A stretch of DNA of 64,000 bases from Candidatus Latescibacterota bacterium (GCA_965223905.1 CBDCXV010000010.1:1248001-1312000); one strand, 5' to 3'; counted from the first letter of the stretch, positions 19,050 to 35,591 are shown. The notes: generated by a model not told the origin, from the letters alone. Numbers and translations: made by a program.

Positions 19050-20256
19050 CCGGGACACCCCCCAGGTGCCCCATCACCCACAGTCGAGACAAGGTCCAGC
19101 CCTGGTCCGCTTTTTCCCTCATGCTCTCATCGACGACCACCGGGCGGACGGAAGTGCGGCCCGAGTTGGTTCGGGACACGGCGAACAAACGCACGCGGTC
19201 ATCCTGCAATGGAAGCCCATCCAGAACCAGCGGATTGTGCGTCGTCAGCAGGATCTGTCGTGGCTCTTCTGCTTCCAGGTACCACCGGCACAAATGCTCC
19301 ATCAAGGACCGGGCCAACCTTGGATTCAATCCGTGATCGGCATTGTCTACCGCACATAGTCGGGGACTTTGTTTATGTCCTGAAATCACTGCGAGAAACA
19401 GAACGTACAAGGCGCCTTCAGAAGCATCGTACCCCGATATAATGTTTCGCCCCTTTCGCATGAATCTGTCCCGAAAGCGGATCACGGAATCCGATGCTGC
19501 AGCAGCTGGAGAGAGAGCCAATTTGGCTGAAGATGTAAACCCATAGCTCTCCGCCCAATCGACAAGCCTCAGGGCCTCCCTGCAAATCTGTTTACTGTTT
19601 TGATCCTCTCCACTTTGATCCTCTCCACGTTGTTTAAGTAGCTCCTTTATTGCTTGCGGCAGGTTCCCGCCAGACAAGCCTAAGGGCTGTCTTGGTTGCG
19701 TTTCCGGTGCAACACCGCGCAATACAGGTGTTGTCGGGGAAAAAATGACATAGTCCTGCAACAACCTTAAGAGATCCAGAGCGGCACCGCTGTCGACTTC
19801 CACGGCCTTCAGTGCAGCCAGTCCCCGTTCGGGATTGGTTTTTTGGGCTTGTGCGGGAGAACGATCAAAATTCTCAATGCCGTCACCTTCCCACCGCTCT
19901 GTCTTGAATTTCCAGGCCGGCGCCGGATCATTAAGCGGATTGTGCAGGGAAACTTCGTAATTCGCTCGCGCGTTTTGCCCTCCGAAATACAGATGTGGAG
20001 GGATTTTATTTCCCGGTCTTCCGGGGAAGGCGGACTTGTAAAGAGCGGGAAGGCCGGGACGGACACCTCGGGCCAACAAGCTTTGATCGTCGACCTTGCC
20101 GTCCGAGGCCGCAGAGAGAACTCCCAAGGCCTCGAGCAAGTTGCTTTTTCCGCTGCCGTTGGCGCCGATGAAGACATTGACTAGTCCCAAGTCGACGGTC
20201 ACGTCCTCCAGGGACTTGAATGTCCTGACGGTTAGAGTCTCGAGCACTTGTCGCAT
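19042..20256 (-). CDS. AAA_21-type ABC ATPase (defence-associated type)
   Basis: FKSL..VTVDLGLVNVFIGANGSGKSNLLEAL, ASEGAL signature, AVDNADHGLNPR, LTTHNPLVLD; start MRQVLETL at 20256. Confidence 0.85.
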   Translation of the reverse strand: MRQVLETLTVRTFKSLEDVTVDLGLVNVFIGANGSGKSNLLEALGVLSAASDGKVDDQSLLARGVRPGLPALYKSAFPGRPGNKIPPHLYFGGQNARANYEVSLHNPLNDPAPAWKFKTERWEGDGIENFDRSPAQAQKTNPERGLAALKAVEVDSGAALDLLRLLQDYVIFSPTTPVLRGVAPETQPRQPLGLSGGNLPQAIKELLKQRGEDQSGEDQNSKQICREALRLVDWAESYGFTSSAKLALSPAAAASDSVIRFRDRFMRKGRNIISGYDASEGALYVLFLAVISGHKQSPRLCAVDNADHGLNPRLARSLMEHLCRWYLEAEEPRQILLTTHNPLVLDGLPLQDDRVRLFAVSRTNSGRTSVRPVVVDESMREKADQGWTLSRLWVMGHLGGVPDV

Positions 20257-20505
20257 CTCAGATCCTGTTGCTCCTGGGCACGAAATCACCGGGCCTGGAC
20301 TTTACGCTCTCACTGCCCATTGTGTCTCCCAAGGTAAAGATAGCACGGGGGTAGGCAAGGATTTCAGGAGCGCTCTTCCCGTCCTTTCCGCCAGTATATC
20401 CAGGCGCAAAAACAGCTTGCAGCGCGCCAATAGCTTGCGGTGGCAAAGCTTGAGTTCAGCAGAAGATCCGCAGGCGAGGCGATCACTCCATTCCCGGGAA
20501 ATCCG

Positions 20506-21561
20506 CTAACTCCAGGCCTCCCTGAGCAGGCGGATCCAGTTGCCGTGCATGATCCCGGCGATGTCGGCGGCGCTGTAGCCCCGCTCCTCGAGCAGGGCGG
20601 GGATGCGCTGCAGGTCGGCTATGGTGTCGATGTCGGCCGGGCTCTGCTCCTTGCCGTAGCCGCCGTCGAGGTCGGTGCCGATGGCGGCGTGACCGGCGTT
20701 GCCCGCCACCTGGCAGACGTGGTCGATGTGGTCGACCACCGTCTCAAGCGTGATGCCGGTGTTGTCGACCACCTGCCTGTCCCAGCGGGGGGACAGCATC
20801 CAGTCGTCGAAGGCGGTGCCGATGACGCCGCCGCGCTCGACCAGCGCCTTTATCTGCCGGTCGTCGAGCTGGCGGTCGTGGTCGCACAGGGCGCGGCAGC
20901 AGTTGTGGGTGGCGATGACGCGCCCTCCGAAAACCTCGAGCGCCTCCCAGAACGCCTGCTCCGCGAGGTGGCTGACGTCGAGGATCATGCCGGCTTCCTG
21001 CAGCGCCCCGAGCATCGGCGCCCCCCTCGGGGTGAGGCCGCCGGGCGCCTGGGTGCCGTGGGAGTAGGAGCTGATCCCGTAGTGGCAGAGGCTGACGATG
21101 CGCAGGCCCTCGTCCCACCATTCCGCCACCTGCTCCTCGCCGACGATGCCGTCGGCCCCCTCCATCGAGAGCACGAAACCGAGCGGCGCCGAGGCGCTGT
21201 CCCGCTCCCAATCCCGCAGGTGGGCGTCGAGGCCGGCGGCGTCGCGGATCTGTCTGAGAACCCCCTTCGCCTCCATGAGCCGGTAGTAGGCGACCTCGCC
21301 GCGGCACTTGGCGTAGGCGATGTCCTGGGTGCGCACCCCGGGGAAGCGCTTCCCCACGGAGGCCAGGCGGCTGTGGCAGGTGGCCACGAAGAGGCCGATC
21401 TCGCCGCGGCGCAGCTCGTCGAAGCAGACCACGTTGAGGCCGCGCCCCTTGCCGGCCATCCCGGCTTCGGACTCCCGTATCGCCGCGATCGGCTGCAGCA
21501 GGTCGCGGTTCCACTCCAGGGCGTTGTAGGCGATATCGAGGTGTGAATCGACGATCAGCAT
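20506..21561 (-). CDS. Membrane/renal dipeptidase family protein (peptidase M19)
   Basis: Start MLIVDSHLD; SMEGAD, ILDVSHL, ATHNCC, HIDHVCQVAG, IGTDLDGG, IMHGNWIR. Confidence 0.88.
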   Translation of the reverse strand: MLIVDSHLDIAYNALEWNRDLLQPIAAIRESEAGMAGKGRGLNVVCFDELRRGEIGLFVATCHSRLASVGKRFPGVRTQDIAYAKCRGEVAYYRLMEAKGVLRQIRDAAGLDAHLRDWERDSASAPLGFVLSMEGADGIVGEEQVAEWWDEGLRIVSLCHYGISSYSHGTQAPGGLTPRGAPMLGALQEAGMILDVSHLAEQAFWEALEVFGGRVIATHNCCRALCDHDRQLDDRQIKALVERGGVIGTAFDDWMLSPRWDRQVVDNTGITLETVVDHIDHVCQVAGNAGHAAIGTDLDGGYGKEQSPADIDTIADLQRIPALLEERGYSAADIAGIMHGNWIRLLREAWS

Positions 21562-21598
21562 GGGGGGCACTCCAGAAGGTTGGGTTCTGTGGATACGG

Positions 21599-22564
21599 TC
21601 AGCGGGATCGCGGAACCGCCAGCTCGGCGAGCAGCTCCCCCCAGCTGCGCCGTTCCCGCTCCGGATCGACCAGCGCGGCCCGCTCGGAGCAGTGCCGGCG
21701 CAGCCGGCGCAGGAACAGATCATCTTTTTCGCAGCGCAGCATAAGGTCGGCGAGGGCGCGGGTGTCTCCGACCGGGAAGTACCCGGGGTAGTCCTCGCCG
21801 AGGATGCCCACCGACCCGTCGATGCGGGTGGAAAGCACCGGCACCCCGCAGGCGATGGCCTCGCAGACGACGTGGGCGCCCCCCTCCATTTCCGAGGTCA
21901 GCACGAGCGCGCGGCTGCGGGCGATCTCGCGCACCGCGCGCCAGCGCGGCAGCTCCCCGAGCCAGCGGTAGCGCCGGTTTTCCCGCTGCTCCCGCAGCGC
22001 CCGGACCGCCATGTCGTCGCTGAGCGCGGCGCCGGCATGGCGCACCCGGATGCGCGAGCCGGGCGGCAGCAGGCGGCTGGCCTCGGCGGCGCGGAACGGG
22101 TCCTTGACCGGGCGCAGGTGGCCGACCACGGAGAGGTTGAAGGTGCGGGCCCGCGAGGAGGGTTCGCGGCTCGGAGGAACGATCGACTGGTAGATGACGC
22201 GGGCCCGGCCCCGGAACCGCTCGGGCAGGGCCGCGGCTCCCAGCTCCTGCAGTACGACGCAGCGGTCGGCCAGCTCGAGGGATCTCCGCGCCTCGGGATC
22301 GGTTTGGATGTCGCGGTAGAGGTCGGTGCCGGTCAGCGCCAGGACGATGGGCCGTTCCGGGTGGGCCGCGGCGAAGCGCGCCAGGGACGCGGCCGAACGC
22401 CGCGCGTGCAGCGCCACCAGCAGGTCGCAGTGCTGGCGCCCGAACTCCTCGGCCACGGCGACGGTGTGGCCGAGCTCCCGCAGGATGCGCCGCCAGCGCA
22501 TCGCCGTGACCCGGTTCCCCTTGCGCGAGCCGGGGGGCGCCGGCGTTACGATCAGGATCCTCAC
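21599..22564 (-). CDS. senB: Selenoneine biosynthesis selenosugar synthase (TIGR04348-type glycosyltransferase)
   Basis: GNRVTAMRWRRIL, LVALHARRS, LTGTDLY, GHLRPVKDP, SEMEGGAHVVCEA, LGEDYPGYFPVGD; adjacent to an EgtB homologue and selD. Confidence 0.9.
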   Translation of the reverse strand: MRILIVTPAPPGSRKGNRVTAMRWRRILRELGHTVAVAEEFGRQHCDLLVALHARRSAASLARFAAAHPERPIVLALTGTDLYRDIQTDPEARRSLELADRCVVLQELGAAALPERFRGRARVIYQSIVPPSREPSSRARTFNLSVVGHLRPVKDPFRAAEASRLLPPGSRIRVRHAGAALSDDMAVRALREQRENRRYRWLGELPRWRAVREIARSRALVLTSEMEGGAHVVCEAIACGVPVLSTRIDGSVGILGEDYPGYFPVGDTRALADLMLRCEKDDLFLRRLRRHCSERAALVDPERERRSWGELLAELAVPRSR

Positions 22565-22730
22565 GGGGCTCGCAGCTCCCGGCGCCGGTGGAGTCCCGGG
22601 GCCGCCAGGCTCTGAGGGCCGGCGCTCTCCCCGGGAGCGGCAAATCCGGGGAACCCAGGTAGCCGCTCCGGGCGGCTATTCAGACTGCCGGGACACCCCG
22701 TTGCGCCTCCCCCGGGCAGCCGGTCCGCGG

Positions 22731-24037
22731 TCACGGGGCGCACGTGCGGAACCCGGTGAGGACGTCGCCGCGGTCCGGGGTCTGGAAGTTGCGGTAGTTG
22801 CTGCGGATCAGCCGCGAGCGCGTCGCCCAGCAGCCGCCGCGCATCACCTTGCGGGTGCCGAACCAGGGCTCGGAGTAATCCTTGTAGGGATCCGGAGTGA
22901 ATCCCGGGAAGGGCTGGAAATCGGAGCTCGTCCACTCCCAGACGTTGCCGATCATCTGGCGGCAGCCGTGAGCGCTGTCGCCGCCGGGGTATGCGCCGAC
23001 GTCGACGGTGCCCATGCCGCGCCAGTCGAGGTTGGCGAGGTCGGGCGCCGGCGGGCGGTCGCCCCAGGGATAACGGCGCTTGGCCGCGCCGTTACCGGGA
23101 CCGCGCGGTCCCGGCTCGGTAGTGGCCGCGGCCTCCCACTCCGCTTCGGCCGGCAGGCGCCTGCCGGCCCAGCGGCAGTACGCGTCCGCCTCGAACCAGT
23201 TGACGTGGATGACCGCCTTGTCCGGCTCGAGCGGCACCCAGGAATCGAAGTGCCGGCGCTCCCATCCGCGGCCCGCCCGGCGAAAGTAGCGGTGGCCGGC
23301 CGCGTCGCTTTGCTGCCGCCACCCCAGCCTTCGTCGCACCAGTGCTCCGGCTTCCCGTAGCCGTCGTCGTCGACGAAGGCGGCGTACTCCGCCTGGGTGA
23401 CGCAGGCGCGGGCGATGCGGAAGGGCTCGAGCTCCACCGCGAACGCCCACTTCTCGTTGTCGAACACGAACGGCTCCTCCGGCGTCGACCCGAGCATGAA
23501 GGAGCCCCCCGGGATCTCGACGTCCCCCGGCAGGGGGCCGCCCCCGGGAATTCCGGTCCCGTCGAGGCCGGTCAGCTGCGGCCGCGGGTAGCCGTGGGTC
23601 TGGCGCGTGTACGTGAACGCCTCGGTGTGCATGTCCTCGTGCAGGGTGCTGTAGAGTGCGTGGTAAAGCAGCTCTTCGGAAGGGCCGCCGGCGAGGTGCC
23701 GCAGCAAGCGGTCGCGGACCTCGCGCATGTACTCGAGGGTCTCTTCGCGCGAGGGCAGCGGCAGGTCCCAGCGCGTGTCGTGGGCGATCTCCATCGAGTC
23801 GTAGAGGGCGTCCTCGTCCTCGCGGACGGGGCGCTCGCCGCAGGCGTGCCGGAGCGCCCACAGCGACTGGAACCAGGCGTGGTGCCCCATCTCCCAGAGG
23901 CCGGGGTTGACGGTGGAAAGCTCCGGGCCCATCAGCTGCCCGTCGCTGAGGTCGCCGACGAGCTCGAAGGTGCGCTCCCTGGCGTCTCGCACCCAATCGG
24001 CAAGCTCTTCGGGGGACGCCAGCTGTCGGACGGACAT
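22731..24037 (-). CDS. senA: Selenoneine synthase SenA (EgtB/sulfoxide-synthase homologue), -1 frameshift near 23322
   Basis: DinB-like N-terminus NPGLWEMGHHAWFQ and HEDMHTEAF, FVFDNEKWA; after one missing base in a G run, FGE-sulfatase domain HVNWFEADAYCRWAGRRLP.EAEWE...GNVWEW...YKDYSEPWFG. Confidence 0.85.
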
Positions 24038-24087
24038 GGTTCCTTCCCTGTTGCTGTTCCTGTTGCAGGGGTCGGGCGATTCCCGAT

Positions 24088-24133
24088 GCCCCCTGAGTGT
24101 AGTCAGTCCCCGGCTCGGGGCAACCGCGTTGCC
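24088..24133 (-). promoter_or_regulatory. Candidate sigma70 promoter of senA
   Basis: Minus strand TTGCCC-N16-TACACT about 60 nt upstream of the senA ATG. Confidence 0.4.
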
Positions 24134-24205
24134 TCGGGGCGGCGACCTGAATAAGTTGTCGCCCGCACCGAATAGACCCCCACATCGACGAACCGACGGA
24201 TACCC

Positions 24206-25261
24206 ATGGCGCTGCACTCAAAAGAGAAGACCCTGACCAGCCTCGCCAAGACCTGCGGGTGAGCGGCCAAGGCGAGCCCGGTCGGGCTCGAGAAGCTGTT
24301 GGCCGGCCTGCCGCGCAAGTCGGACCCCAACCTGCTGGTCGGATTCGAGACCAGCGACGACGCCGGGGTCTACCGGCTCGGGGACGACACCGCCATCGTC
24401 GTCACCGCGGACTTCATCACGCCGCCGGTCGACGACCCGTTCACCTTCGGCCAGATCGGCGCCGCCAACTCCCTGAGCGACGTCTACGCCATGGGGGGGC
24501 GGCCGGTCGCATGCCTCAACCTGATCGGGTTTCCCGAGGAGGATCTCGGCCCCGAAGTGCTGCACGGAATCGTCGAGGGGGCGTTGAGCAAGATCACCGA
24601 GGCGGGGGCGGTGCTGGCCGGCGGCCACACCACCAACGACGACGAGCCGAAGTTCGGGCTCTCGGTAACCGGGGTGGTGCACCCGGACAGGTACTGGCGC
24701 AACGCCGGGGCCCGGCCCGGGGACGCGCTGATACTGACCAAGCCGATCGGCAGCGGCGTGATCTTCAACGCCAACCTCAGGAACGCGCTCCCGGCAGCCG
24801 CCCTGAACCGGACCCTGGCGGTGCTGACCGAGCTGAACAGGACCGCGGCCGAGACCCTGGCCCGGTTCGACGTGCACGCGGCGACCGACATCACCGGCTT
24901 CGGGCTCGCCGGGCACGCCCTGGAGATGGCCAAAGGCTCCGGGGTTACCCTGGAAATCGACGTCGACTCGGTGCCGACCCTGCCGGAAGCGCTGGAGATG
25001 TACGAGCGCGGCATCACCACCGGGGCCAACGCCGAGAACCGGGCGCAGGTCGGGGAGGCCGCCCTGTACGAGAAGGAGCTGCCGGGAAAACAGGGCGAGA
25101 TCCTGGTCGACCCGCAGACCAGCGGCGGCCTGTTCGCCGCGGTTCCCGAGGCCCAGGCCGGGGCCGCGGTCGAGGCCCTGCAGCAGGCCGGCGTGGAAAC
25201 CGCCTGCATCGTCGGCCGCGCCGTCAGCCTGTCGCCGCCGCATTACCTGAAGTTCCAGTAG
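24206..25261 (+). CDS. selD: Selenophosphate synthetase, selenocysteine-containing form (SenC role)
   Basis: ATG 24206 MALHSKEKTLTSLAKTCG-U(TGA 24260-62)-AAK is in frame with SDDAGVY, TADFITP, AANSLSDVYAMGG, GGHT, TDITGFGL.GH and DPQTSGGL. Confidence 0.93.
24263..24290 (+). promoter_or_regulatory. Bacterial SECIS-like hairpin of selD
   Basis: CGAGCCC-GGTC-GGGCTCG stem-loop; G-initiated loop 17 nt after the UGA. Confidence 0.75.
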
Positions 25262-25343
25262 GGGACCGTTGGTCCTGCACCGTTTCCCCATCCAAAATCC
25301 ATATCGGATCCACATCATCACGCGTTATTAAAGGAGGACGAGA

Positions 25344-26203
25344 TTGAAACTTCGCAGGACCTGCTGTGCCCTGGCCATTGCCTTGGCGGGGCAGGCATCG
25401 GCCGCGGACATGTTCCGCTTCACGGCGATTCCCGATCAGAACACCGCCCGCCTCAAGGAGCGCTTCGACCGCGTCGCCGGATACCTGTCGGGCAAGCTGG
25501 GGATCTCGTCGAGTACATACCGGTCAAGTCGTACGCGGCCTCGGTGAACGCCTTCAAGAACGACGAGGTTCAGCTCGCCTGGTTCGGCGGACTGTCGGGG
25601 GTCAAGGCGCGGCGCGCCGTGCCCGGGTCGCAGGCGATCGCCCAGGGGGAGGAGGACCTGCAGTTCGTCACCTACTTCATCGCCAACGCCCGCACCGGCA
25701 TCGAGCCGGGGGAGGAGTTCCCCGCGGCGATCGCGGGCCGCACCTTCACCTTCGGTTCCAAGGGGTCCACTTCGGGGCGCCTGATGCCGGAGTTCTACAT
25801 CAGGCAGCATTTCGAGAAGGCGCCGGGCGAGGTCTTCAAGCGCGTCGGCTTCAGCGGCGACCACTCCAAGACCCTCGCCCTGGTGCAGTCGGGCAGCTAC
25901 GAGGCCGGGGCCCTGAACTTCAAGGTGTTCGACAAGGAGAAGGCGGCCGGCAACGTCGACTCGACCAAGGTGAGCGTCATCTGGCGCACCCCGGCCTACC
26001 CGGACTACAACTGGTCGATCCGCGGCGACGTCGAGGAGAAGTACGGCGAGGGCTTCATCGCCAAGGTCCGCGACGCCCTGCTGGCGCTCGACGACCGCGA
26101 GATCCTCGACCAGTTCCCGCGCACCCGCTTCATCGCCGCGGACAACTCGATGTACGGCCCCATACTCGAGACCGGGACCGCCATCGGCATCTTCGAGCAA
26201 TGA
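25344..26203 (+). CDS. PhnD-like ABC substrate-binding protein (putative selenate type), -1 frameshift near 25506
   Basis: SD AGGAGG + TTG; signal peptide; FTAIPDQN; after the indel VEYIPVKSYAASVNAF...LAWFGGLSGV, FTFGSKGSTSGRLMPE, FSGDHSKT, TPAYPDYNW. Confidence 0.8.
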
Positions 26204-26235
26204 GCCGGGCCATCCCGGCAGCGGCGTCCTGACCC

Positions 26236-26920
26236 GTGTACGATCTCCAAGACCTGAGCGTTGCCTACGAGGACACGCCGGTCCTGGCCGGCGTCTCCCT
26301 GCGCATCGGCGCCAGGGGAGAAGGTCGTCGTCATCGGCCCCAGCGGCGTCGGCAAGACGACCCTGCTGAAGAAGCTGTACGAGCTGCGCCAGGAGCAGTG
26401 CGCGTTCATTCACCAGGACTACGCGCTGGTGCCGCAGCTGTCGGCGTTCCACAACGTCTACATCGGCCGCCTCGACCAGCGCCCCACCACCAGGAACCTG
26501 CTGAACCTCATCCGTCCGGGGCGCGGCGAAATCGAGCAGATCCGGCCGATCTTCGCGGCCCTCGGCATGGAGGAGAAGATGTTCGAGCGGGTCAGCAATC
26601 TCTCGGGAGGGCAGCAGCAGCGGGTCGCGGTCGGCCGCGCCGTGTACCGCGGCTGCGACGTCATCCTCGGCGACGAACCGGTTTCCGCAATCGATCCGCT
26701 GCAGGCCGGGACCGTGCTGCAGCTGATCCGCGACAGCTCCGCCACCGTCGTCCTCGCCATGCACGACGTCAACCTGGCGCTGGCCCACTTCCCGCGCATC
26801 GTCGGGCTGCGCGAAGGGGGCCTCGCCTTCGACCTGCCGGCCGCCGACGTCGACGAGGGGATCCTCGCCGACCTCTACCGCAGCGAGGCAAGCGCAGTTC
26901 TGCCGCCGGCACTTTCGTAG
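26236..26920 (+). CDS. PhnC-like ABC ATPase, +1 frameshift near 26314
   Basis: YDLQDLSVAY...VLAGVSLRI joined to GEKVVVIGPSGVGKTT, LSGGQQQRVAVGRA, DEPVSAIDP, LAMHD. Confidence 0.8.
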
Positions 26921-26932
26921 AGACCGCCTCGG

Positions 26933-28432
26933 ATGCTGCGAACGAGTCTGCAGTTTGTCGGCGTCGCCCTGGTCTGCCTGGTCCTGGCCGACCTGGAGGT
27001 CACCACACTCGATCCCTGGCGCGAGCTGCAACGCATCGGCCTGGGGTTCCTGACCCCCGACCTGCCGGTCCTCTACACCTTCCGCGAAGCCCTCCTCAAC
27101 ACCGTCACCTTCGCCTTCTGCGGCATCTCCCTCGGCCTGGCCCTCGGCAGCGTCCTGGCCCTCTTCTTCCAGGTCACCGCGGTCAGGCTGTTCTGCGCCT
27201 TCATCCGCGCCATCCACGAGATCTTCTGGGCCTTCCTGTTCCTGCCGGTCGTCGGCCTCAACCCGATGTGCGGGGTGCTGGCCATCGGCATTCCCTACGC
27301 CGGCATCTTCGCCAAGGTGTTCGCCGAGATCATGCAGGAGGCGGACAACACGCCCCTGAAAGGCCTGCCCCTGCACACCCCTGGGCTGAGCAGGTTCTTC
27401 TACGGCGTGCTGCCGGTGATCTACGCCGACGTCAAGAACTACACCTCGTACCGGTTCGAGTGCGCCCTGCGCTCGAGCGCCATCCTCGGGTTCATCGGCC
27501 TGCCGACCCTGGGGTTCCACCTCGAGACCGCCTTCCGCGAAGGGCTCTACAGCGAGGCCCCGGCCCTCCTCTACGCCTTCTACCTGCTCATCGCCTCGCT
27601 GCGCTACTGGCTGAAGCCGAAGGTGGCGATCGCCTGCGCCGCGGCCTCGTTCGCCCTGATCTCGACGGAGATACACCTCTCCTGGCAGAACATCACCCGC
27701 TTCGCGACCTGGGAGATCCTGCCCTGGCCGATGCGGCGCGAGGGGTTCCTCGACGGCAGCGGCGAGGTCGCCTTCCCCGCGGGCAGGGTGTGGGATTGGG
27801 CTTTGAAGATCCTGTCGCAGGAAGCGCTGCCCGGGGTGTGGAACACGGTGCTGCTGACGCAGGTGGTTCTGGTGGGGACCGGGCTGTTCACCCTGGTCTT
27901 CTTCGGCGGCATCTGCCGCCACTTCGTCAGGACCAGGCTGTCGCGGGGGCTGGCCAACTACTTCCTCATCGTCATGAGGACGACGCCGGAGTACATCCTC
28001 GCCTACGTCTTCCTGCAGCTCTGGGGCCCGTCGATGCTGCCGGCCGTCCTCGCCATCACCCTGCACAACGGCGCCATCCTGTCGCACCTCACCGGCCAGA
28101 ACGCCAACCTCGTGAAGCTCGAGATCGACGCGGCCAAGAAGCGGGCGAACCGCTACCTGTTCGAGGTCCTGCCGCGGGTGTACGGGCAGTTCATGGCCTT
28201 CCTGTTCTACCGCTGGGAGGTGATGATGCGGGAGTCGGCCATCCTCGGGATTCTGGGGATCTCGACCCTCGGGTTCTTCATCGACAGCGCCATCGCCGAC
28301 GACAAGCTCGACAAGGCGGTGTTCCTGATCCTGGTGACCGCGGTGCTCAACATCGGCATCGACACGGTCTCGCAGAGGATCAGGAGGCGGCTGCGGGTGA
28401 GCACCGGGGCGGTGTTCACCTACCAGCGGTAG
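26933..28432 (+). CDS. PhnE/PtxC-like ABC permease with two fused domains
   Basis: Two copies of the permease pattern (RAIHEIFWA...YRFECALRSSAILGFIGLPTLG and RTTPEYILA...YRWEVMMRESAILGILG). Confidence 0.85.
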   Translation: MLRTSLQFVGVALVCLVLADLEVTTLDPWRELQRIGLGFLTPDLPVLYTFREALLNTVTFAFCGISLGLALGSVLALFFQVTAVRLFCAFIRAIHEIFWAFLFLPVVGLNPMCGVLAIGIPYAGIFAKVFAEIMQEADNTPLKGLPLHTPGLSRFFYGVLPVIYADVKNYTSYRFECALRSSAILGFIGLPTLGFHLETAFREGLYSEAPALLYAFYLLIASLRYWLKPKVAIACAAASFALISTEIHLSWQNITRFATWEILPWPMRREGFLDGSGEVAFPAGRVWDWALKILSQEALPGVWNTVLLTQVVLVGTGLFTLVFFGGICRHFVRTRLSRGLANYFLIVMRTTPEYILAYVFLQLWGPSMLPAVLAITLHNGAILSHLTGQNANLVKLEIDAAKKRANRYLFEVLPRVYGQFMAFLFYRWEVMMRESAILGILGISTLGFFIDSAIADDKLDKAVFLILVTAVLNIGIDTVSQRIRRRLRVSTGAVFTYQR

Positions 28433-28466
28433 GCGGGCGCCGGGGGCGCAGCCCCCGGCATCGCTC

Positions 28467-30935
28467 CTACTTCAGCAGCAACATCTTCCGCATCGACATA
28501 AAGCCGGCGGTGGAAAGGCGGTAGAGGTAGACGCCGCTCGCCACCTCGCGCCCCTGTTCGTCCCTGCCGTCCCAGGTGAAGGCGTGCCCGCCGGGGCCGA
28601 GGCCCTCCCAGGTCAGCAGCTGCAGCCTCCGCCCGGACAGGTCGAAGATCTCCAGGTGCAGGGGCCGGTCCCCCTGACTGCCGAGGACGTCGAAGCGGAT
28701 GGTGGTCCCGGCATTGAATGGATTGGGCACGTTCTGATACAGCACCGCGGCGACGGGCAACGCCGGTGCCCGCAGCCGGTAGGCATTTCCGGCAGCTACC
28801 ACGATCATGTCCCGCTGGAGGGAGGCAAACTGCTTCAGCTCGACCGGCGGAGACCGCACCGCGGCGTACTCGACGACCGGGTCCCCGAAGGTGTACTCGG
28901 AGTCGATCCAGACGCCGCCGCTGAGGTAGAACTGCCTTCCGAACCAGGAGGCGCTGGCGAGCTGTTCTTCTACTGCCGTGGTACCGCCTCCGCCTGAATC
29001 TGCCGTGGTACCGCCTCCGCCCGAATCGCCAACCGCTTCATCCGAGACCCCCTCGGGCAGGACCAGCGGCTGTACCACTCTGGACAGCTCGGTGCCGTCG
29101 TTGCGCACCACCCGGTCCACGGCGACGAAAGAGGTATAGGCGGTGAGCAGGTTGTAGGTCAGACCCAGCTCCATGATATGGCTTCGCACTCGCGCCTCCA
29201 GCCCCAGCCCCGCGTAGTCCCCCAGGGTGGCGATGAGCCGGCGGGCCCAGAGATAGCGGAGCGCCGCGTTGGACTCGTCGGGAGTCACCTGGGAGACGTC
29301 GATTTCGAAGGCGTACTCCCCCTGCCCCGTATGACCCCGCAGCGACAGGGTGCCCTGCCGTTCCCCCTGCCATTTCCCGTAGACCAGGACGGGCCGCTGC
29401 GCCAGCAGGTCCGGGATGACCGCCGGTTCCACCTCGTAGATGTCGAACCCCTCGGCCGCGAAGGTCGCTCCCGAAAGGACCGGGATGCGGATGTACTCGC
29501 GGAACCGGGCGGCCGTCTCTTCGGCCTCGTCCTCCCGGGTGACGACGAACGGCTCCCCGAATCCGACGCGCGCGATCCCCTCGATAAGGAAGCGGTTGAC
29601 GCTGGATCCTATGCCGAAGGCGAAGACGTTCGCGTCTCCGAGATTGTCCCTTATCAGGTCGAATACCTCCGCCTCCGCCGAGATGTACCCGTCGGTGGCG
29701 ATCACGATCGAGCGGGAGGTCTTCTCGCTCGTTCTCGGCAGCTGTATGGCGCGCTCGAGGGCCGCCCCGAGCCGGGTGCCGCCCGCTCCCTCGCTGGCAT
29801 CGATGAACTCGAGGGCCAGCTCTATGTTCTCACTCGATGACGGAAGGGATTTTTCCGACATCAGGTTGGAAACCCCGGCGAACAGCAGCACGTTGAAGTG
29901 GTCGGTCGGTCGAAGCGGCTCGATCAGGTCCCTCAGCAGCGCCTTCGACACATCGAGCGGATAGCCGCCCATCGACCCGGACACGTCGACGACGAAGATG
30001 TACTCCCGCGGGGGAATCTCCTCCTCGGAGACGCGCTCCGGCGGCTGGCCCATGAACAGGAAGAAGTTTTCGTCCAGGAAGCTTTCCCCCTCCCCCTCGT
30101 AGAGCAGCAGACCGGTTTCGATCCGGTCGCCCGCCAGGCTGTAGCGCAGGATGTAATCCCGGTTGCCGCCGGACTCGTCCGACTCGAGCAGCCCGACCCG
30201 CGCCCGGCCCGCCTCCGGGTAGGAGACGTCGACCTCGTGGGAAATCGAGTACAGGGCCTGAATCGGCACCCCGGTGGTCAGCTCGACGTCGATGTCGAAA
30301 CCGTAGGCGGCCGGCTCCCCTTCATGGGTGTAGGGCGTCGCCACGAACAGATCTCTGGAATCGGCCTCGGCCAGGGGAGTCTCCGAGTACCGCGGTCCCA
30401 CCACGGTCGGATATACGAACTCGTACTCCCCTTCGGCCGGCACGAGGGTTTCGGTGTAGCTCAGCTCGACGAAGATGGTATCTCCCGGCAGGATGTTGCC
30501 CACGGTCATCTGAAAGACGTTGGGACGCTGCTGCTCGAGGAGCGAGGCGGTGCGGCCCTCTTCGACCGCCTCTTCGTACTCCTGGCGCGCCTGTTCCCGT
30601 TCCCGTATCTCGGCCGTTATGATGCGGTCGCCGATGGTCATCTCCATTCCGTACACTGCGGCCTGGGTGGAGGCGGGGAATATATAGGTGGCCTCGAGGG
30701 GCCGTTCCCCTTCGTTGGCGTACTCCTGGCGGATCCTGACGTCGGCGATGACACCGGCGATCACCACCGTGGCGGCAACCGATTTCAGAGGAAGCTGGTC
30801 GAGGTCGGGATCGTCGGTTTCGACGAAGAAGAACGGGGAAAGGGTTTGCTGCGGGGGCTCCTGGAATTCCTGCTGCCCCCGGCCGGGCGAGGTGAGGAAT
30901 ACGAGGGTCAGCAGACAGGCGATGGGAACGATCAT
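28467..30935 (-). CDS. Secreted VIT + vWA domain protein with C-terminal FlgD-Ig/sorting-like domain
   Basis: SD AGGAGG, start MIVPIACLL; VIT (LEATYIFP...ASLLEQQRPNVF), vWA DVSGSMGG and ATDG; C-terminal QNVPNPFNAGTTIRF...WDGRDEQGREVASGVYLYRL...KMLLLK. Confidence 0.88.
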   Translation of the reverse strand: MIVPIACLLTLVFLTSPGRGQQEFQEPPQQTLSPFFFVETDDPDLDQLPLKSVAATVVIAGVIADVRIRQEYANEGERPLEATYIFPASTQAAVYGMEMTIGDRIITAEIREREQARQEYEEAVEEGRTASLLEQQRPNVFQMTVGNILPGDTIFVELSYTETLVPAEGEYEFVYPTVVGPRYSETPLAEADSRDLFVATPYTHEGEPAAYGFDIDVELTTGVPIQALYSISHEVDVSYPEAGRARVGLLESDESGGNRDYILRYSLAGDRIETGLLLYEGEGESFLDENFFLFMGQPPERVSEEEIPPREYIFVVDVSGSMGGYPLDVSKALLRDLIEPLRPTDHFNVLLFAGVSNLMSEKSLPSSSENIELALEFIDASEGAGGTRLGAALERAIQLPRTSEKTSRSIVIATDGYISAEAEVFDLIRDNLGDANVFAFGIGSSVNRFLIEGIARVGFGEPFVVTREDEAEETAARFREYIRIPVLSGATFAAEGFDIYEVEPAVIPDLLAQRPVLVYGKWQGERQGTLSLRGHTGQGEYAFEIDVSQVTPDESNAALRYLWARRLIATLGDYAGLGLEARVRSHIMELGLTYNLLTAYTSFVAVDRVVRNDGTELSRVVQPLVLPEGVSDEAVGDSGGGGTTADSGGGGTTAVEEQLASASWFGRQFYLSGGVWIDSEYTFGDPVVEYAAVRSPPVELKQFASLQRDMIVVAAGNAYRLRAPALPVAAVLYQNVPNPFNAGTTIRFDVLGSQGDRPLHLEIFDLSGRRLQLLTWEGLGPGGHAFTWDGRDEQGREVASGVYLYRLSTAGFMSMRKMLLLK

Positions 30936-31227
30936 GGCGCACCTCCTGGAGGGTCGCTCGAAATGGAGCGTGTGAGTGCGGATCGAAAGCCGGGGCACGG
31001 CCCGAAGATGCCGCCGCGATATCGGGAGCAGGAACTTCTCCCTCACTTCGGCCCAGTAGCTGATTTCTTCCGCGGAAATGCGATGATCCGCCATGGCGGT
31101 CTCCGTGTCAGGGGCCGGTAAGGTAACCGCTTGGATACCCGCGATGAAGCCGTCGAGCCCGTGGTGGGATGCCACCCCGGGCGGAAGGGCAACCCGGAGC
31201 AGGGGGAAGCTGTCCCTCCCGCAGGCG

Positions 31228-31623
31228 TCACATCCGCGGCATCGGCTCGAACAGGGAGATGTCCTCCATCGGGTAGTGGCCGCGGTTGTAGGTGACCAAA
31301 ACGAGACCCCTTTCCTTCGCCGTCGCGGCTATGAGCGCATCCCCCCGGCCCAGGGTCACCCCCCGGCCGCGGAAGTCGCGCCAGTACCCGGCCGCGGCCA
31401 GGGCGACGCGGCTGTCCGCGGCGATCTGGTCCAGCGTCTCGAGGAATCGGCGCGTCGGCTCCTCCTCCTGAGGGCGGGCGCCCACCCAGACCTCGAACGC
31501 GGAGAGCGCGGAGCAGCCCAGGGGTTGTTCGTCCTCGATGGTCCGCAGCAGGGCCTCGGTGGGCTCGTGGCCCCGCAGGTGCCAGATGATGACGTCGGTG
31601 TCGAGCAGGTAGCGCAGCGCCAT
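31228..31623 (-). CDS. vapC: PIN-domain toxin VapC
   Basis: YLLDTDVII, SAFEVWVG, DALIAATA, LVTYNRGHY. Confidence 0.9.
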   Translation of the reverse strand: MALRYLLDTDVIIWHLRGHEPTEALLRTIEDEQPLGCSALSAFEVWVGARPQEEEPTRRFLETLDQIAADSRVALAAAGYWRDFRGRGVTLGRGDALIAATAKERGLVLVTYNRGHYPMEDISLFEPMPRM

Positions 31624-31899
31624 TCAACCGCTCTCCGGTCTTCCGGGTTTGCGCCAGCCCTCCTCGTCCCGAAGGGAATCGATCTGTTTCCACACGTCCT
31701 CGTGTGTCCGCAGGTGAGGGTAGTCGTCGTCGCGCCAGGCCCCGAAGGTCTGCTCTCTTTCCGTTCGGAAGGCCAGCTGCCTCAGGCGGCTCTCGATGGC
31801 CTCGGCGATGAACTCGCTTCGCTTCCGCTCGGGCACGCGGGCCCGCAGCGCGGCCGCGGTCGCCTCCGGAAGGACGATGGTGGTACGCACTTTGTTCAT
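31624..31899 (-). CDS. Ribbon-helix-helix antitoxin
   Basis: VRTTIVLPE...RKRSEFIAEAIESRL; directly upstream of vapC. Confidence 0.8.
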   Translation of the reverse strand: MNKVRTTIVLPEATAAALRARVPERKRSEFIAEAIESRLRQLAFRTEREQTFGAWRDDDYPHLRTHEDVWKQIDSLRDEEGWRKPGRPESG

Positions 31900-32128
31900 T
31901 GTTATCCGGCCGATCGGTATGACATGTGAGCTGATTTCATGTGACTTGATGTATGCATAACCATGAAGCGGAGGCTGCCGGCGTCAAGGCTTGCCGGTAG
32001 CCTCCGGGCGGCGGCGTTCCACGGGTCTTTCAGGAATGAGCGTAAGCCGACCTTGCAGCCTTCGGGGATGGCGCCAGGACTGGAACGACACGGGGGTGAG
32101 CGTTTGCCGCGCCGTTTCCGCGGTTTCG

Positions 32129-33139
32129 TCAGGGGCGGAAGAGGTTGACGCTGAAGCGGCGCCCGGGGTCGAACCACTGGTGTTCGAGGGTCATCCCCGC
32201 GGCCGCGGCGAGGGCCTCGATCTCCGCCGCGGAGTACTTGTAGGAGTTCTCGGTGTGGATGGTCTCGCCGTCGGTGAATCCGATCGCGAGCCCCAGCCCC
32301 TCTATGGCGACCGTCTGGGCGCCGGTGCTCTCGAGGTGCATCTCGACGCGCCCGAGCTGCTCGTCCCAGACAGCGCGGTGGCGGAACCGCTCGAGGTCGA
32401 AGCGTCCCCCGAGGTCGCGGTTGATGCGCGCCAGGATGTTCTTGTTGAAGCGGGCGGTCACTCCCTCGCTGTCGTCGTAGGCGCGCTCGAGCACGGCCGC
32501 CTCCTTGCGCAGGTCGATCCCGGCGAGAAAGCGGTCGTCCGGGGACATGGCGGCGCGCACCCCGGCGATGAAGTCGGCGGCTTCGGCCCGCTCGAAGTTG
32601 CCGACGTTCGACCCCAGCCACAGGATCAGCCGCCGGCCCCCGGGGTTCTGCCGGAGGTATTCGAGGCCGTCTCCGTACTCCCCGGCCACGGCGAGGATCT
32701 CGAGGTCCTCGAACTCCTCGGTCAGCGCCGCGGAGCTTTCTTCCAGGGCTGACCGCGAGATGTCGACGGGAATGAACCGCAGGCCGCCCTGGCGCTCGAT
32801 CAGGGCCTCGATCAGCAGCCGCGTCTTGACCGCGGAGCCGCTGCCGAGCTCGACGAGGGTGACCTCGCCGGCAAACAGGGCGGCGATCTCGGGGGCGCGG
32901 CGCTCGAGGATGGCGTGCTCGGCCCGGGTCAGGTAGTACTCGGGGAGGCCGCAGATCTCCTCGAACAACTTCGAACCGGCCTCGTCGTAGAAGTAGCGGC
33001 AGGACAGCCGTTTCGGTGAGCCGGTCAGGCCGGCCCTGACGTCGCCGGCGAAGTCCGCGGTATGGACGCGGCCGGCCGCGGCCAGGAGAGTGATCGCGCC
33101 GGCGGCGGCGGGCGCGGGCTGGACGGCGAATCGGGTGAT
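32129..33139 (-). CDS. egtD: L-histidine N-alpha-methyltransferase (hercynine synthesis)
   Basis: FAGDVRAGLTGSPKRLSCRYFYDEAGSKLFEEICGLPEYYLTRAE, LVELGSGS, WLGSNVGNF, AYDDSEGVTARFN, IHTENSYKY. The frame opens at 33139 on ATC; no canonical start codon. Confidence 0.9.
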   Translation of the reverse strand: MTRFAVQPAPAAAGAITLLAAAGRVHTADFAGDVRAGLTGSPKRLSCRYFYDEAGSKLFEEICGLPEYYLTRAEHAILERRAPEIAALFAGEVTLVELGSGSAVKTRLLIEALIERQGGLRFIPVDISRSALEESSAALTEEFEDLEILAVAGEYGDGLEYLRQNPGGRRLILWLGSNVGNFERAEAADFIAGVRAAMSPDDRFLAGIDLRKEAAVLERAYDDSEGVTARFNKNILARINRDLGGRFDLERFRHRAVWDEQLGRVEMHLESTGAQTVAIEGLGLAIGFTDGETIHTENSYKYSAAEIEALAAAAGMTLEHQWFDPGRRFSVNLFRP

Positions 33140-33150
33140 GGCTCAGGCTC

Positions 33151-33345
33151 CCGGGCTATTCCACCGGCTCGAGGCGGGCGCATCCGCGGCAGGCTTCCGC
33201 CCATCTGTTGCTGGGACAGGACACGGGGTGATCGCTCCGGGCTATTCCACCGGCTCGAGGCGGGCGCATCCGCGGCAGGCTTCCGCCCATCTGTTGCTGG
33301 GACAGGACACGGGGTGATCGCTCCGGGCTATTCCACCGGCTCGAG
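33151..33345. repeat. Tandem repeat, 86-bp period, two full copies plus a 23-bp partial
   Basis: ccgggctattccaccggctcgag at 33151, 33237 and 33323, separated by identical 63-bp segments. Confidence 0.95.
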
Positions 33346-34845
33346 ACGCAGGCCCTTCGGCACCAGGACTCGCTCCGAAAGCTCGAACAGCCCCTGCACC
33401 GCCAGGGCGAGGAGCGCCGCGGGAATCGCCCCCTCCATGATCAGCCGGTTGTCGGCGAGCCGCAGGCCGGTCATGATCGGCTGTCCGTAGCCGCCGGCGC
33501 CGATGAAGGCGCCGATGGTGGCGAAGCCGACGTTGATGACCGCCGAGGTCTTGATGCCGGCCAGGATCGCGCGTGAAGCGAGGGGGAGCTCGATGCGCCG
33601 CAGCCGCACCCACGGAGGCAGGCCGAGGGCCGCGGCCGACTCCCGCAGGGGACCCGGTATGTCGCGGAGGCCGGTGCAGGTGTTGCGCACGATCGGCAGC
33701 AGGCTGTAGAGGAAGAGGGCGGCGATGGCCGGCGGTTCGCCGATGCCGAACGGCTGGATCATGAACACCAGCAGGGCGAGGGCCGGCAGCGTCTGTATGA
33801 CCCCGGTCATCCCGAGGATGACCTGTCCGAGCCGCGCCCACTTGGCGGCGAGGATCCCCAGGGGCAGGGAGACGGCGATGGCCGCGGCCAGCGAGATCCC
33901 GGTCAGGGCGAGGTGCTCCCGGGTGCGCCGCAGCAGGCGGTCCCACAGGGTCGTCTCGACGACCGTGCTTTCGATCTTCAGGGCCCCGGCGAGGAAATCC
34001 GCGGCGACCTTCTCCTCGGGCACGAGCTCGAGCTTGGCGCGGCCGTTGAGCCCCGACATCGTCCTGTCGTCGATGAGCCCCTCGAGCCGGAGGATCGAGC
34101 GCACCGCCTCCGGGGCCCTGCCGGCGAGGTCGGAGCGGTAAAGGACGACGGCGTTGTAGGCCGGGAAGTGGCGGAGGTCGTCGGCCAGCGTTCTCAGGTT
34201 GTAGAACTCGATCTCGGCATCGGTCGAATACATGTCGGTGACGTCGATGTCCCCGGACTCGAGCCCGCGATAGGCGAGGTCGTGCTGCAGTCCCTGGACG
34301 TTTCGATGCCGCAGGCCGTAGCGGTCGCGCAGGCTGGGCCAGCCGTCGCCGCGGTCGAGGAACTCGTTGCTGAAGCCGAAGCGGAGGCCGGGCTGCTTCT
34401 TCAGGTCGGATATGGTCCGCATCCCCAGGCTGTCGGCGAGCGCCTCCGGCATCCCCATCGCGTAGGTGTTGTTGAAGCCGATGGGGCGGCTCATCGCCAG
34501 GCCGTGCTCTTCGAGGGCGGCGCGTATCGCCTCCAAGCCGTGGACGCCGCCGCCCGCCAGGATCTCCTCGCTGATCGTGCCCGTGTACTCGGGGTAGGCG
34601 TCGAGGTCGCCGCGCAGCAGGGCCTCCCACAGGACCCGGGTGCCCCCCAGCTCGCTCTGGTGGGTGACCTCGGCCCCGGAGGCCGCGGCGAGCTGCGCCA
34701 CCATCTCGCCGAGAAGGACGTTCTCCGTGAACGACTTGGAGCCGACGCGGATCTGCGGAGCGTCGGTTCCGGCCCCAGCCCCGGCCGGGCATGCAAGAAG
34801 AAGGGCGGCTGCCGCGGCCGCGGCGCCGGTGCGGAGCGGGTTCAC
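33328..34845 (-). CDS. Betaine/osmoprotectant-family ABC transporter, substrate-binding + permease fusion (OpuBC/EgtU-like)
   Basis: VGSKSFTENVLLGE, YPEYTGT, GFNNTYA, EFLDRGDG, YSTDAEI; permease QTLPALALL...LYSLLPIVRNT...IGAGGYG. Confidence 0.88.
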   Translation of the reverse strand: MNPLRTGAAAAAAALLLACPAGAGAGTDAPQIRVGSKSFTENVLLGEMVAQLAAASGAEVTHQSELGGTRVLWEALLRGDLDAYPEYTGTISEEILAGGGVHGLEAIRAALEEHGLAMSRPIGFNNTYAMGMPEALADSLGMRTISDLKKQPGLRFGFSNEFLDRGDGWPSLRDRYGLRHRNVQGLQHDLAYRGLESGDIDVTDMYSTDAEIEFYNLRTLADDLRHFPAYNAVVLYRSDLAGRAPEAVRSILRLEGLIDDRTMSGLNGRAKLELVPEEKVAADFLAGALKIESTVVETTLWDRLLRRTREHLALTGISLAAAIAVSLPLGILAAKWARLGQVILGMTGVIQTLPALALLVFMIQPFGIGEPPAIAALFLYSLLPIVRNTCTGLRDIPGPLRESAAALGLPPWVRLRRIELPLASRAILAGIKTSAVINVGFATIGAFIGAGGYGQPIMTGLRLADNRLIMEGAIPAALLALAVQGLFELSERVLVPKGLRLEPVE

Positions 34846-35591
34846 GTATCCGCTCCGAGGACCTGCAGCGGCGTCCGCTGCGCGTTGATGAACCGGGACA
34901 CGAACGGATCCGCCGGCGAGTCGACCAGCTCCTGCAACGTCCCCTGCTGCACGATCTCCCCTTCCCGCAGGAGCACGAGGCGGTCGCCGAAGAAGCCGGC
35001 CTCGCCGATGTCGTGGGTGACGGCGACCACGGTTTTCCGCAGGGCCCTGAAGATGTCGCGCAGGTCCCCCTGCAGCTCGGAGCGCACGATCGGGTCGAGG
35101 GCGCCCAGCGGCTCGTCGAGGAGCAGCACCTCGGGATCGAGCATCAGCGCCCGCATCAGGCTGACGCGCTGTTTCTGGCCGCCGGAAAGCTGCGCCGGGA
35201 AGCGGTCGAGCCCGTCGAAGGGGAAGCGGGTCAGCTCCGCCAGCTCGCGCAGGCGGGCCTCGACGCGGTCTTCGTCCCAGCCGAGATGGCGCGCCAGCAG
35301 GGCGGCGTTGTCGCGCGCGCTCAGGTGCGGAAACAGGCCCCCGTCCTGGATCACGTACCCCATGCGGCGCCGCAGGTCGAGCACGTCGCCCCCGTCGAAA
35401 CCCCTGCCGTCGAAGGAGACGGTCCCGGTGTCGGGCCGGATCAGGCAGATCATCAGGCGCAGCAGGGTCGACTTGCCACAGCCGCTCGGACCGATCAGCA
35501 CCGTGGTGACGCCGGCCTGGATGGTCAGGTCGGTGGGGCGCAGGGCAACGGTGTGGCCGAACGATTTCGAGACGCCGGTCAGTTGCAGCAT
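34842..35591 (-). CDS. Betaine-family ABC transporter ATPase
   Basis: GPSGCGKST, GYVIQDGGLFPH, LSGGQKQRV, DEPLGALDP, VTHD. Confidence 0.9.
   Translation of the reverse strand: MLQLTGVSKSFGHTVALRPTDLTIQAGVTTVLIGPSGCGKSTLLRLMICLIRPDTGTVSFDGRGFDGGDVLDLRRRMGYVIQDGGLFPHLSARDNAALLARHLGWDEDRVEARLRELAELTRFPFDGLDRFPAQLSGGQKQRVSLMRALMLDPEVLLLDEPLGALDPIVRSELQGDLRDIFRALRKTVVAVTHDIGEAGFFGDRLVLLREGEIVQQGTLQELVDSPADPFVSRFINAQRTPLQVLGADT

Follow-up and report, generated by a model that had tools for sequence, protein, structure and literature searches.

The question raised by a 64,000-nucleotide (nt) stretch of DNA from Candidatus Latescibacterota bacterium (GCA_965223905.1 CBDCXV010000010.1:1248001-1312000; hereafter the window, with positions counted from its first letter) is whether the genes between 21599 and 35591 form a complete module for selenoneine, from the import of inorganic selenium to the synthesis of the product and its uptake, as an earlier note made from the sequence alone had claimed. 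We conclude with good confidence that the region is a selenoneine biosynthesis island in two halves, which are separated by a block encoding a VIT-VWA protein and a VapC toxin that appears to have been inserted later. This reading is based on the family identities of the encoded proteins, a SenA-type motif in the key enzyme, a selenocysteine (Sec) codon followed by a conserved hairpin in selD, and the linkage of transporter genes and egtD to senB in other phyla. The features of the two halves are the following (ABC, ATP-binding cassette; aa, amino acids):

21599..22564, minus strand: senB, selenosugar synthase (GT4 glycosyltransferase), intact, GTG start; TIGR04348 412.6 bits against a cut-off of 300, profile positions 1-309 of 310
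22731..24037, minus strand: senA, selenoneine (selenoxide) synthase; NF041186 matched in two pieces, the gene being split by a 1-nt deletion at 23322-23323
24037-23324, 23321-22734 and 22731-22733, minus strand: N part, C part and stop codon of senA
24038..24205, no strand: divergent senA/selD intergenic region, presumed promoter region
24206..25261, plus strand: selD/senC, selenophosphate synthetase, Sec at residue 19; TIGR00476 373.7 bits with TGA read as U
24260..24262, plus strand: in-frame TGA of selD, read as selenocysteine, motif TCG-U-AAK
24273..24290, plus strand: hairpin in selD resembling a selenocysteine insertion sequence, with a 7-bp stem and a GGUC loop, beginning 10 nt past the UGA
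25344..26203, plus strand: TIGR04553 family member ("putative selenate"), a periplasmic binding protein that begins at TTG with an N-terminus resembling a signal peptide; frame broken within 25499-25508
26236..26920, plus strand: PhnC-like ABC ATPase, GTG start; frame break within 26311-26318
26933..28432, plus strand: double PhnE-type permease, 499 aa, intact; TIGR01097 matched in two stretches
32129..33139, minus strand: egtD, histidine N-alpha-trimethylase (hercynine-making); TIGR03438 365.4 bits against a cut-off of 290.9, profile positions 2-300 of 301
33328..34845, minus strand: fusion of an OpuAC-type binding domain (EgtUC-like; PF04069, residues 31-286) and an ABC permease (PF00528, residues 327-496), with a lipobox-like signal in front
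34842..35591, minus strand: ProV-type ABC ATPase of the betaine-type importer; TIGR01186 217.9 bits, under the cut-off of 326.6; its stop and the beginning of the fusion gene share 4 nt

Genes were named by Pfam and NCBIfam profile scans, and the guanine-plus-cytosine (GC) content at third codon positions was used to tell real genes from shadow open reading frames (ORFs) in this stretch of 66-73% GC. The family profiles confirmed the genes that had been named from the sequence (senB, senA, selD, a PhnDCE-like transporter, egtD and a betaine-family importer), as well as their orientation and spacing. The senA gene lies 166 nt upstream of senB and is divergent from selD, and the SenB relatives found in other assemblies are 97-100% identical to that of the window. 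Scans for sigma-70 promoters and for terminators were uninformative, with 1 promoter-like site against 0.9 expected, nothing above shuffles, and 5 terminator-like sites against 5.8 expected.

In the proposed pathway, in which every substrate, the expression of the genes, and the direction and purpose of transport are predictions, the TIGR04553/PhnC/PhnE2 ABC importer would bring in a selenium oxyanion from which, after reduction, SelD (SenC), itself a predicted selenoprotein, would make selenophosphate. SenB would then move the selenium onto UDP-N-acetylglucosamine to give a selenosugar, EgtD would trimethylate histidine to hercynine and SenA would couple the selenosugar to C2 of hercynine to form selenoneine. 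Finally, the second ABC importer, in which an EgtU-like domain stands ahead of the permease, would take up a histidine betaine for salvage of precursor or product.

Several observations weigh against this interpretation. Three genes (senA, the binding protein and the ATPase of the first importer) are frame-broken as sequenced, and no ATG, GTG or TTG is found upstream of the conserved EgtD N-terminus. In SenA, the position of EgtB Asp416 (Phe397 in V. paradoxus SenA) holds a Gln, which is outside the published SenA motif (F/Y), and no tRNA-Sec, selA or selB was found within the window. TIGR04553 is classed as a "hypothetical equivalog" and the transporter substrates rest on prediction, while four EgtU specificity residues differ in the second importer (F293 to Tyr, Y337 to Phe, I243 to Ser and G244 to Phe).

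The layout was compared with that of other senB loci. For this, 49 SenB sequences were aligned and species-representative genomes were scanned, which gave 591 pattern matches, 582 of them encoding a SenB relative; the counts of neighbors below concern the best 80 of these 582 loci, searched by tblastn with the window proteins. Since many loci are short contigs, the absence of a gene near senB is weak evidence. Among the 80 loci, senA was found near senB in 56, selD in 14, egtD in 11, a TIGR04553-type binding protein in 10, the double PhnE permease in 9 and the OpuAC-permease fusion in 6, and the methyltransferases near senB passed the EgtD cut-off in 8 of 8 tested cases. The linkage of both transporters to senB, the lack of which the earlier note had regarded as fatal to its proposal, is conserved in these 10 and 6 loci, respectively. 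Genes for the M19 dipeptidase, the VIT-VWA protein, VapC, a ceramidase-like protein and DCC1 occurred near senB in none of the 80 loci.

The closest genomic relative (locus L017, 70-79% identity) contains all nine island genes in the order and orientation of the window, contiguous and without the VIT-VWA/VapC block; in two other loci, L004 and L011, egtD likewise abuts the PhnE permease, and the block is absent from four related loci. Because of the contiguous island in L017 and of the position of egtD in L004 and L011, we consider the block, which with its 3.7 kb fills the gap of about 4 kb between the two halves, to be an insertion into an ancestral compact island and not part of the pathway, as judged from gene order. 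Its components are:

28467..31175, minus strand: VIT-VWA protein with a C-terminal tail of the type IX secretion system kind (Pfam VIT, VWA and FlgD_ig; NCBIfam Por_Secre_tail)
31228..31623, minus strand: VapC PIN-domain toxin (PF01850, 56.5 bits)
31624-31929: small ORF upstream of vapC, with no NCBIfam match

On the other side, an M19 membrane dipeptidase (20506-21723, minus strand) lies directly downstream of senB, its longest ORF overlapping the 3' end of senB by 125 nt; it is probably unrelated to the selenoneine island, because it occurs near senB in 0 of the 80 loci. In L021 (8920-10857) and L009 (6363-8327), SenB and EgtD are encoded in one continuous ORF, which in L021 has 646 aa and comprises SenB (residues 9-319) followed by EgtD (339-639). 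Such apparent natural SenB-EgtD fusions would tie the synthesis of hercynine to that of the selenosugar.

On the NF041186 model, the N piece of SenA scored 252.7 bits (profile positions 3-239) and the C piece 222.2 bits (237-382), so that neither piece of the split gene alone reaches the cut-off of 420 but their sum (474.9 bits) does; on the EgtB model the same pieces scored 125.4 and 160.7 bits, each under its own SenA score. Compared with the SenA model of NCBIfam, the window protein is about 50 residues longer (146 profile positions are spanned by 196 residues). Its best solved relative is OvsA, the enzyme of the ovoselenol (ovs) cluster, in which OvsA and OvsM accompany senB and senC (133.9 + 183.8 bits for the two pieces, against 85.9 + 161.3 for V. 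paradoxus SenA), and the two clusters share the selenosugar cassette. The enzymes were distinguished through the composite motif given in the accessible text of the ovoselenol preprint, which reads xNEH--HRHxHYYN(F/Y)(F/Y)R in SenA and ends in HYMQAYR in OvsA, and which was located by alignment to the structures of EgtB (4x8b), SenA (8ryz, 8k5i) and OvsA (8u41, 8ux5); its placement on the 4x8b alignment recovers the published letters of EgtB-I. The window enzyme presents N-E-H, H-R, H..H, Y, Y, N, F, Q and R, and is SenA-like at 12 of the 13 informative positions. On the selenosugar side, "VNPGLWEMGH" supplies N, E and H, and a His replaces EgtB Arg87 ("IAHDTRW"); this His and the N/E pair (S/D in EgtB) are found in all 53 N-piece sequences aligned (52 loci and the window).

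On the hercynine side, the triad Tyr366/Asn395/Phe396 is Y, N, F in the window, as in the SenA of the described sen clusters, where OvsA has M401/Q430/A431. According to the same preprint, as far as its text is accessible, the Y/N/F triad turns OvsA into a hercynine-using enzyme, and the C-terminal piece of the window scored 183.8 bits against this OvsA-YNF mutant (8ux5) versus 174.2 bits against the wild type (8u41). The triad and the presence of egtD led us to reject the OvsA identity suggested by the top structural match, and the Pfam and NCBIfam scans of the island ORFs gave no match to an OvsM-type methyltransferase. From the 12 of 13 motif positions and from the phylogeny described below, we assign the enzyme to the SenA type, with one defining residue departing from the motif, and neither to OvsA nor to EgtB; the candidate carries the SenA motif and not that of EgtB, while a grouping with sulfur EgtB would have refuted the proposal of the earlier note.

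The deviating residue is the Gln in "YRNFQ", against "YRNFF" in SenA and "FRNWD" in EgtB. The accessible published text describes Phe397 of V. paradoxus SenA as lining the donor pocket, and an enzyme with Gln at this position could conceivably use a different selenium or sulfur donor and make another product, all the more as the sequences with this Gln (the NFQ set) form one clade in the tree of C-terminal domains (1 change, support 92/89). We find this very improbable. Among the 55 senB-linked enzymes, this triplet is variable (NFY 31, NFQ 9, NFF 7, NYF 4, NFA 3, NYN 1), and the NFQ clade, which consists of Latescibacterota and Gemmatimonadaceae loci together with the window, is nested among the canonical NFY, NFF and NYF types; all nine NFQ enzymes are encoded directly upstream of senB, and egtD lies near the NFQ senA in five of the eight related loci (L002, L004, L011, L017 and L029), the window excluded. 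The remaining 12 motif positions are SenA-like, including the N, E and H-for-Arg87 of the selenosugar side, and a close relative is named "selenoneine synthase SenA [Gemmatimonadota bacterium]" by NCBI. As a side observation, the Rubrobacteraceae loci L030 and L033 encode a SenA with Ala at the Phe397 position (NFA), in a separate clade with L056, and L069 has no senA within the fetched stretch.

The selD gene is predicted to encode a selenoprotein, another difference from the described sen cluster. Without read-through, the match of the selD ORF to TIGR00476 begins only at profile position 33; upstream of this ORF an in-frame ATG at 24206 is followed by the TGA at 24260-24262, and reading TGA as U gives a SelD of 351 aa that covers profile positions 2-310 of 311. 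The Sec would lie in the N-terminal glycine-rich loop of SelD (TCG-U-AAK), at what we take to be the position of the catalytic Cys17 of E. coli SelD. The hairpin that follows has a minimum free energy of -28.7 kcal/mol (z -2.16). Of the 15 sen-linked selD genes compared (14 loci and the window), 13 carry a TGA at this position and two (L063 and L065) have Cys. The 6-bp core of the hairpin is retained in all 10 sequences of TCG*AAK type, each of its positions being paired in 9 or 10 of them, and in two of the core pairs both partners vary (C-G/G-C and U-A/C-G), in part by synonymous substitutions. Scans of the window, hairpin included, gave no Rfam match and no tRNA; because neither tRNA-Sec nor selA or selB lies in the window, the conservation of the TGA and of the hairpin is the sole basis for deducing that Sec is decoded. 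In the Rubrobacteraceae loci L030, L033 and L069, the sen-linked selD has an in-frame stop at the same position within another motif (KAG*GSK or KAG*ASK).

The genes following selD likely encode a selenium importer, to judge by family profile and gene linkage. The C piece of the binding protein alone scored 318.8 bits on TIGR04553 (cut-off 250) versus 86.8 bits on the PhnD model, and the expected neighbors, a PhnC-like ATPase and a PhnE-type permease, are present; the permease, 78.96% identical to that of L017 over 499 aa, is a fused double PhnE, and this fusion together with the breaks in two of the three genes sets the window apart from the usual TIGR04553 system. The possibility that this PhnDCE-like transporter imports phosphonate, phosphite or another oxyanion instead of a selenium species draws on the PhnD, PhnC and PhnE models, which are matched under their own cut-offs, on the match of the binding protein to TIGR01098 (117.3 bits, above the subfamily cut-off of 112.05), and on the status of TIGR04553, whose name contains "putative" and for which no experimental study of the transporter was found, by title or abstract, among the papers listed in a literature search. 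It nevertheless seems improbable given the difference between the TIGR04553 and PhnD scores and the genomic context: the transporter stands in one run with selD in the window and in L002, L004, L011, L017 and L066, all nine TIGR04553 binding proteins tested near senB pass the cut-off of their family (267.9-384 bits), and the same gene was noted near many sen clusters in the 2022 discovery preprint, in its accessible part.

The second importer resembles EgtUV, the ergothioneine transporter of S. pneumoniae and H. pylori, in being a two-gene ABC importer whose binding domain is fused to the permease and has EgtUC as its best solved relative (159.8 bits, versus 127 for Lmo1422 and 124 for ProX). 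By its residue switch and domain order, it would be EgtU-like but not EgtU. The binding domain comes first in the window, the reverse of EgtU, and does so in five of five related loci; moreover, the importer is encoded in producers, beside egtD and the sen genes, while EgtUV occurs in non-producers. The domain keeps N339, Y341, Y419, Y443, T296, R379, E375, D381 and K242 of EgtU, so that the cage and carboxylate set F293/Y341/Y419/Y443, N339 and T296/R379/K242 reads Y, Y, Y, Y, N, T, R, K, with F293 to Tyr as its sole change; E375 contacts the imidazole NH of ergothioneine in EgtU, according to the accessible text on that protein. Ergothioneine binding is reported to be about 100-fold weaker in a G244F mutant of EgtU; the alignment of K242-G244 comes from the third-best match only and is less certain. 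Across the six sen-linked copies, 11 of 13 pocket positions are invariant, I243 being Ser or Lys and N339 being Asp in L009, and the changes to Phe at G244, Tyr at F293 and Phe at Y337 are shared by all six.

Could this Opu-type importer be an ordinary transporter of osmoprotectants (glycine betaine, choline or carnitine), which neighbors egtD by chance and has no role in selenoneine metabolism? Its Pfam family is OpuAC and its best NCBIfam matches, all under the cut-off, are OsmF, ProW and choline permease; the F293/Y337 switch is Tyr/Phe, the state of the glycine-betaine protein ProX, and K-S-F replaces the K-I-G of EgtU. The 2026 paper in the Journal of the American Chemical Society also files such neighbors as housekeeping genes, in its accessible text. 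We nevertheless judge this explanation unlikely, as the fusion stands beside egtD, senA and senB in six of the 80 loci (L003, L005, L007, L009, L017 and L029, labeled Poribacteria, Acidobacteria, Latescibacterota and unclassified bacteria) in rearranged orders (five different arrangements in L003, L005, L007, L009 and L029), with five genes on one strand in L007, and is present in six of the 11 loci that bear egtD. E375, R379, D381 and T296 are kept in all six copies, and the binding domain is overall closer to EgtUC than to ProX. The betaine-type ATPase is 72% identical to the L017 copy. By genomic context, uptake of a histidine betaine (hercynine, selenoneine or ergothioneine) is the most likely function. 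We further propose, tentatively and at less than an even chance, that the sen-linked importers may form a distinct EgtU-related specificity class, whose conserved K-(S/K)-F / Y / F pocket could be tuned to hercynine or selenoneine instead of ergothioneine, and that, sen-linked SelD being usually a selenoprotein, the pathway would be gated by selenium supply; neither idea is addressed in the accessible parts of the sen, ovs and EgtU papers.

As it stands in the sequence, with three genes broken, the pathway lacks SenA and the selenium importer. In senA, where the frame switches at 23322-23323, a 435-aa relative (P0122) aligns through residues 1-238 and 240-434 with the two flanks and leaves 2 nt in place of codon 239 (Glu or Gln in the relatives), so one base is missing. 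One base is also missing from the binding-protein gene within 25499-25508, where the DNA reads CTGGGGATC, at profile position 33 of TIGR04553, the N piece covering positions 2-33 and the C piece 33-265. The ATPase gene has one base extra within 26311-26318, just before Walker A, its N-terminal 25 residues being in the frame of 26236 and the part from Walker A onward in the frame of 26258. The phase plot of third-position GC was too coarse for breaks near gene starts.

We are inclined to believe that the three breaks are local errors of assembly or polishing rather than real inactivation. A GGGG run is found at each of the three sites. Other observations fit such an artefact or else a very recent change confined to this genome. 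The frameshifted SenA fragment (361 aa) is a singleton cluster in the protein collection, present on one contig of 2.18 Mb, while the protein clusters of the neighboring permease, ATPase and VapC have 32, 49 and 37 members, respectively, and two contigs carry the exact 499-aa permease sequence of the window. The break in senA is confined to this assembly: each of the 18 close full-length relatives of the enzyme (76-97% identity) reads through the site. Similar frame switches occur in L017, in senA (near 9176), in selD (three pieces) and in the Opu permease (near 1670), which suggests an indel-prone long-read assembly there.

The competing scenario is one of real decay, in which the indels are true mutations, the organism no longer makes selenoneine nor imports selenium through the TIGR04553 transporter, and nothing but selD, which selenoproteins require, and bystander genes is still intact. 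It is unlikely in our view, yet carries appreciable weight through the distribution of the breaks. About 30 other family-matched genes of the window, among them the 3,219-aa ORF described below, MutL (profile positions 2-450 of 450), Cas1 (1-282 of 283) and Cas3, show full profile coverage or long unbroken frames, with no split found; the three indels therefore cluster, all being inside 2,994 bp (23322 to about 26315), with p ~0.01 as a rough estimate of finding them so close together if three errors were spread uniformly over about 46 kb of coding DNA. The breaks moreover fall in pathway-specific genes while selD is intact, and egtD also lacks a canonical start. On the other hand, besides the homopolymer runs, the private senA break and the precedent of L017, three fixed indels without an amino-acid change next door would be unexpected. 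SenA (95-97%) and SenB (97%) are also similarly diverged from the same relative and hence give no sign of relaxed selection.

Indel noise throughout the window was rejected as an explanation: the overlapping same-strand ORF pairs (2784-4160/3911-5866, 5760-6293/6103-6537 and 43803-44771/44593-45786) are ordinary genes with long upstream open frames, and two PD40 ORFs one stop apart are not a broken gene but tandem paralogs, the second of which begins after the TAA with an ATG and a signal peptide. No relative above 71% identity was found among the GTDB representatives returned.

The start of egtD raises a separate question, which involves one more feature:

33151..33345, no strand: 86-bp tandem repeat, 2.3 copies, 100% identical (Tandem Repeats Finder score 390), spanning the stop codon of the permease gene and the spacer between permease and egtD

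The repeat takes in the end of the Opu permease gene, from its final codons to its stop, and occupies the spacer before egtD. Every copy contains ATGs that are not in the egtD frame, and the repeat may be either real or an artefact of assembly. An in-frame ATC at 33139-33137 ("ITRFAVQP...") aligns with the start Met of the more distant EgtD proteins P0312-P0315 ("MTQFAKQP...") and has a GGGAG 8 nt upstream. A fourth frameshift, by which egtD would start at the ATG of the last repeat copy in another frame, was rejected on the basis of this alignment and of the GGGAG. The gene may then either start at the non-canonical ATC or have lost its start. The lack of a canonical start looks like a trait of the clade and not an error of this assembly, because the three closest EgtD clusters (88-95% identity, with 11, 4 and 3 members) are all annotated short, at 205-249 aa, and no full-length EgtD above 79% identity was found among the matches listed. 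The claim of a complete module goes too far: the genes named are all present, but three are frame-broken and egtD is devoid of a canonical start.

Elsewhere in the window, a CRISPR (clustered regularly interspaced short palindromic repeat) array, in which 25 repeats of about 37 nt are spaced at 72-82, stands beside type I cas genes (regions 7064-8904 and 9405-17404), which encode a 691-aa protein with Cas1 at 360-645, a 1,064-aa Cas3 with a C-terminal HD domain, and proteins of the GSU0054 and GSU0053 families; the GC content of this region (0.56-0.67) is below that of the island. The interval separating the cas genes from the island contains an AAA_21/AbiEii-type ATPase (19042-20289, minus strand) that weakly matches the defense ATPase MADS3 (62 bits, cut-off 420). 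Further on, two DUF1538 membrane proteins, a P-II-like protein and a CBS-domain protein follow in a run (40426-42816, plus strand). A 187-aa ORF (43210-43770, minus strand) matches positions 66-187 only of the OEP (TolC-like) profile, with no second half in the neighboring frames, and is possibly a gene remnant. Finally, an unbroken ORF of 3,219 aa (48175-57834, minus strand) has fn3, cadherin, Calx-beta and polysaccharide lyase 14 matches and ends, like the tail of the VIT-VWA protein, in a FlgD_ig-type domain; it probably encodes a giant secreted adhesin or enzyme.

Most of this layout had already been described. The window shares with the sen cluster of V. paradoxus and Amycolatopsis (Kayrouz and Seyedsayamdost, 2022) its three enzyme families, encoded at one locus; it differs in that selD is divergent from senA-senB, with no single three-gene run, in the added EgtU-like importer and in its three broken genes. 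The proposal that the two transporters go beyond the described cluster was not supported: in its accessible text, the 2022 preprint records that many sen clusters have a putative selenate transporter nearby and that egtD co-localizes with a small subset of them, and its Supplementary Fig. 1 may show the same layout. The accessible part of the 2026 paper tabulates both transporter types among co-encoded genes (ABC_peri_selen 3.1%, PhnE 3.1%, OpuBB/PBP2_AfProX_like 5.4%) and treats them as housekeeping neighbors. Among the papers listed in our literature search on selenoneine and EgtU, none dealt with sen-linked transporters by title or abstract. As for the remark in the earlier note that no characterized example was known in this lineage, the lineage is uncharacterized but already annotated, a close relative bearing the name SenA at NCBI. 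Relatives are labeled Gemmatimonadota, and our main reading places the island in a bacterium of that phylum.

To our knowledge, the biosynthesis of selenoneine has been characterized only in Variovorax and Amycolatopsis. In Gemmatimonadota and Latescibacterota, the locus and its relatives show the pathway together with three elements that recur beside it, namely a likely selenium importer, the egtD gene, and an importer of EgtU-like type that has a conserved pocket of its own. In the present assembly, annotation pipelines would label senA and the selenium importer as pseudogenes, probably on account of assembly noise. Three points seem to us worth retaining: the EgtU-like importer linked to the sen genes, with its conserved pocket; how often sen-linked SelD contains Sec; and the clade of NFQ-type SenA. 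If the sen-linked importers do form a distinct class, the island would join synthesis to the salvage of precursor or product; and if their specificity is for hercynine or selenoneine, they would be the first bacterial transporters for these compounds and would offer a handle to trace the exchange of selenoneine in the environment.

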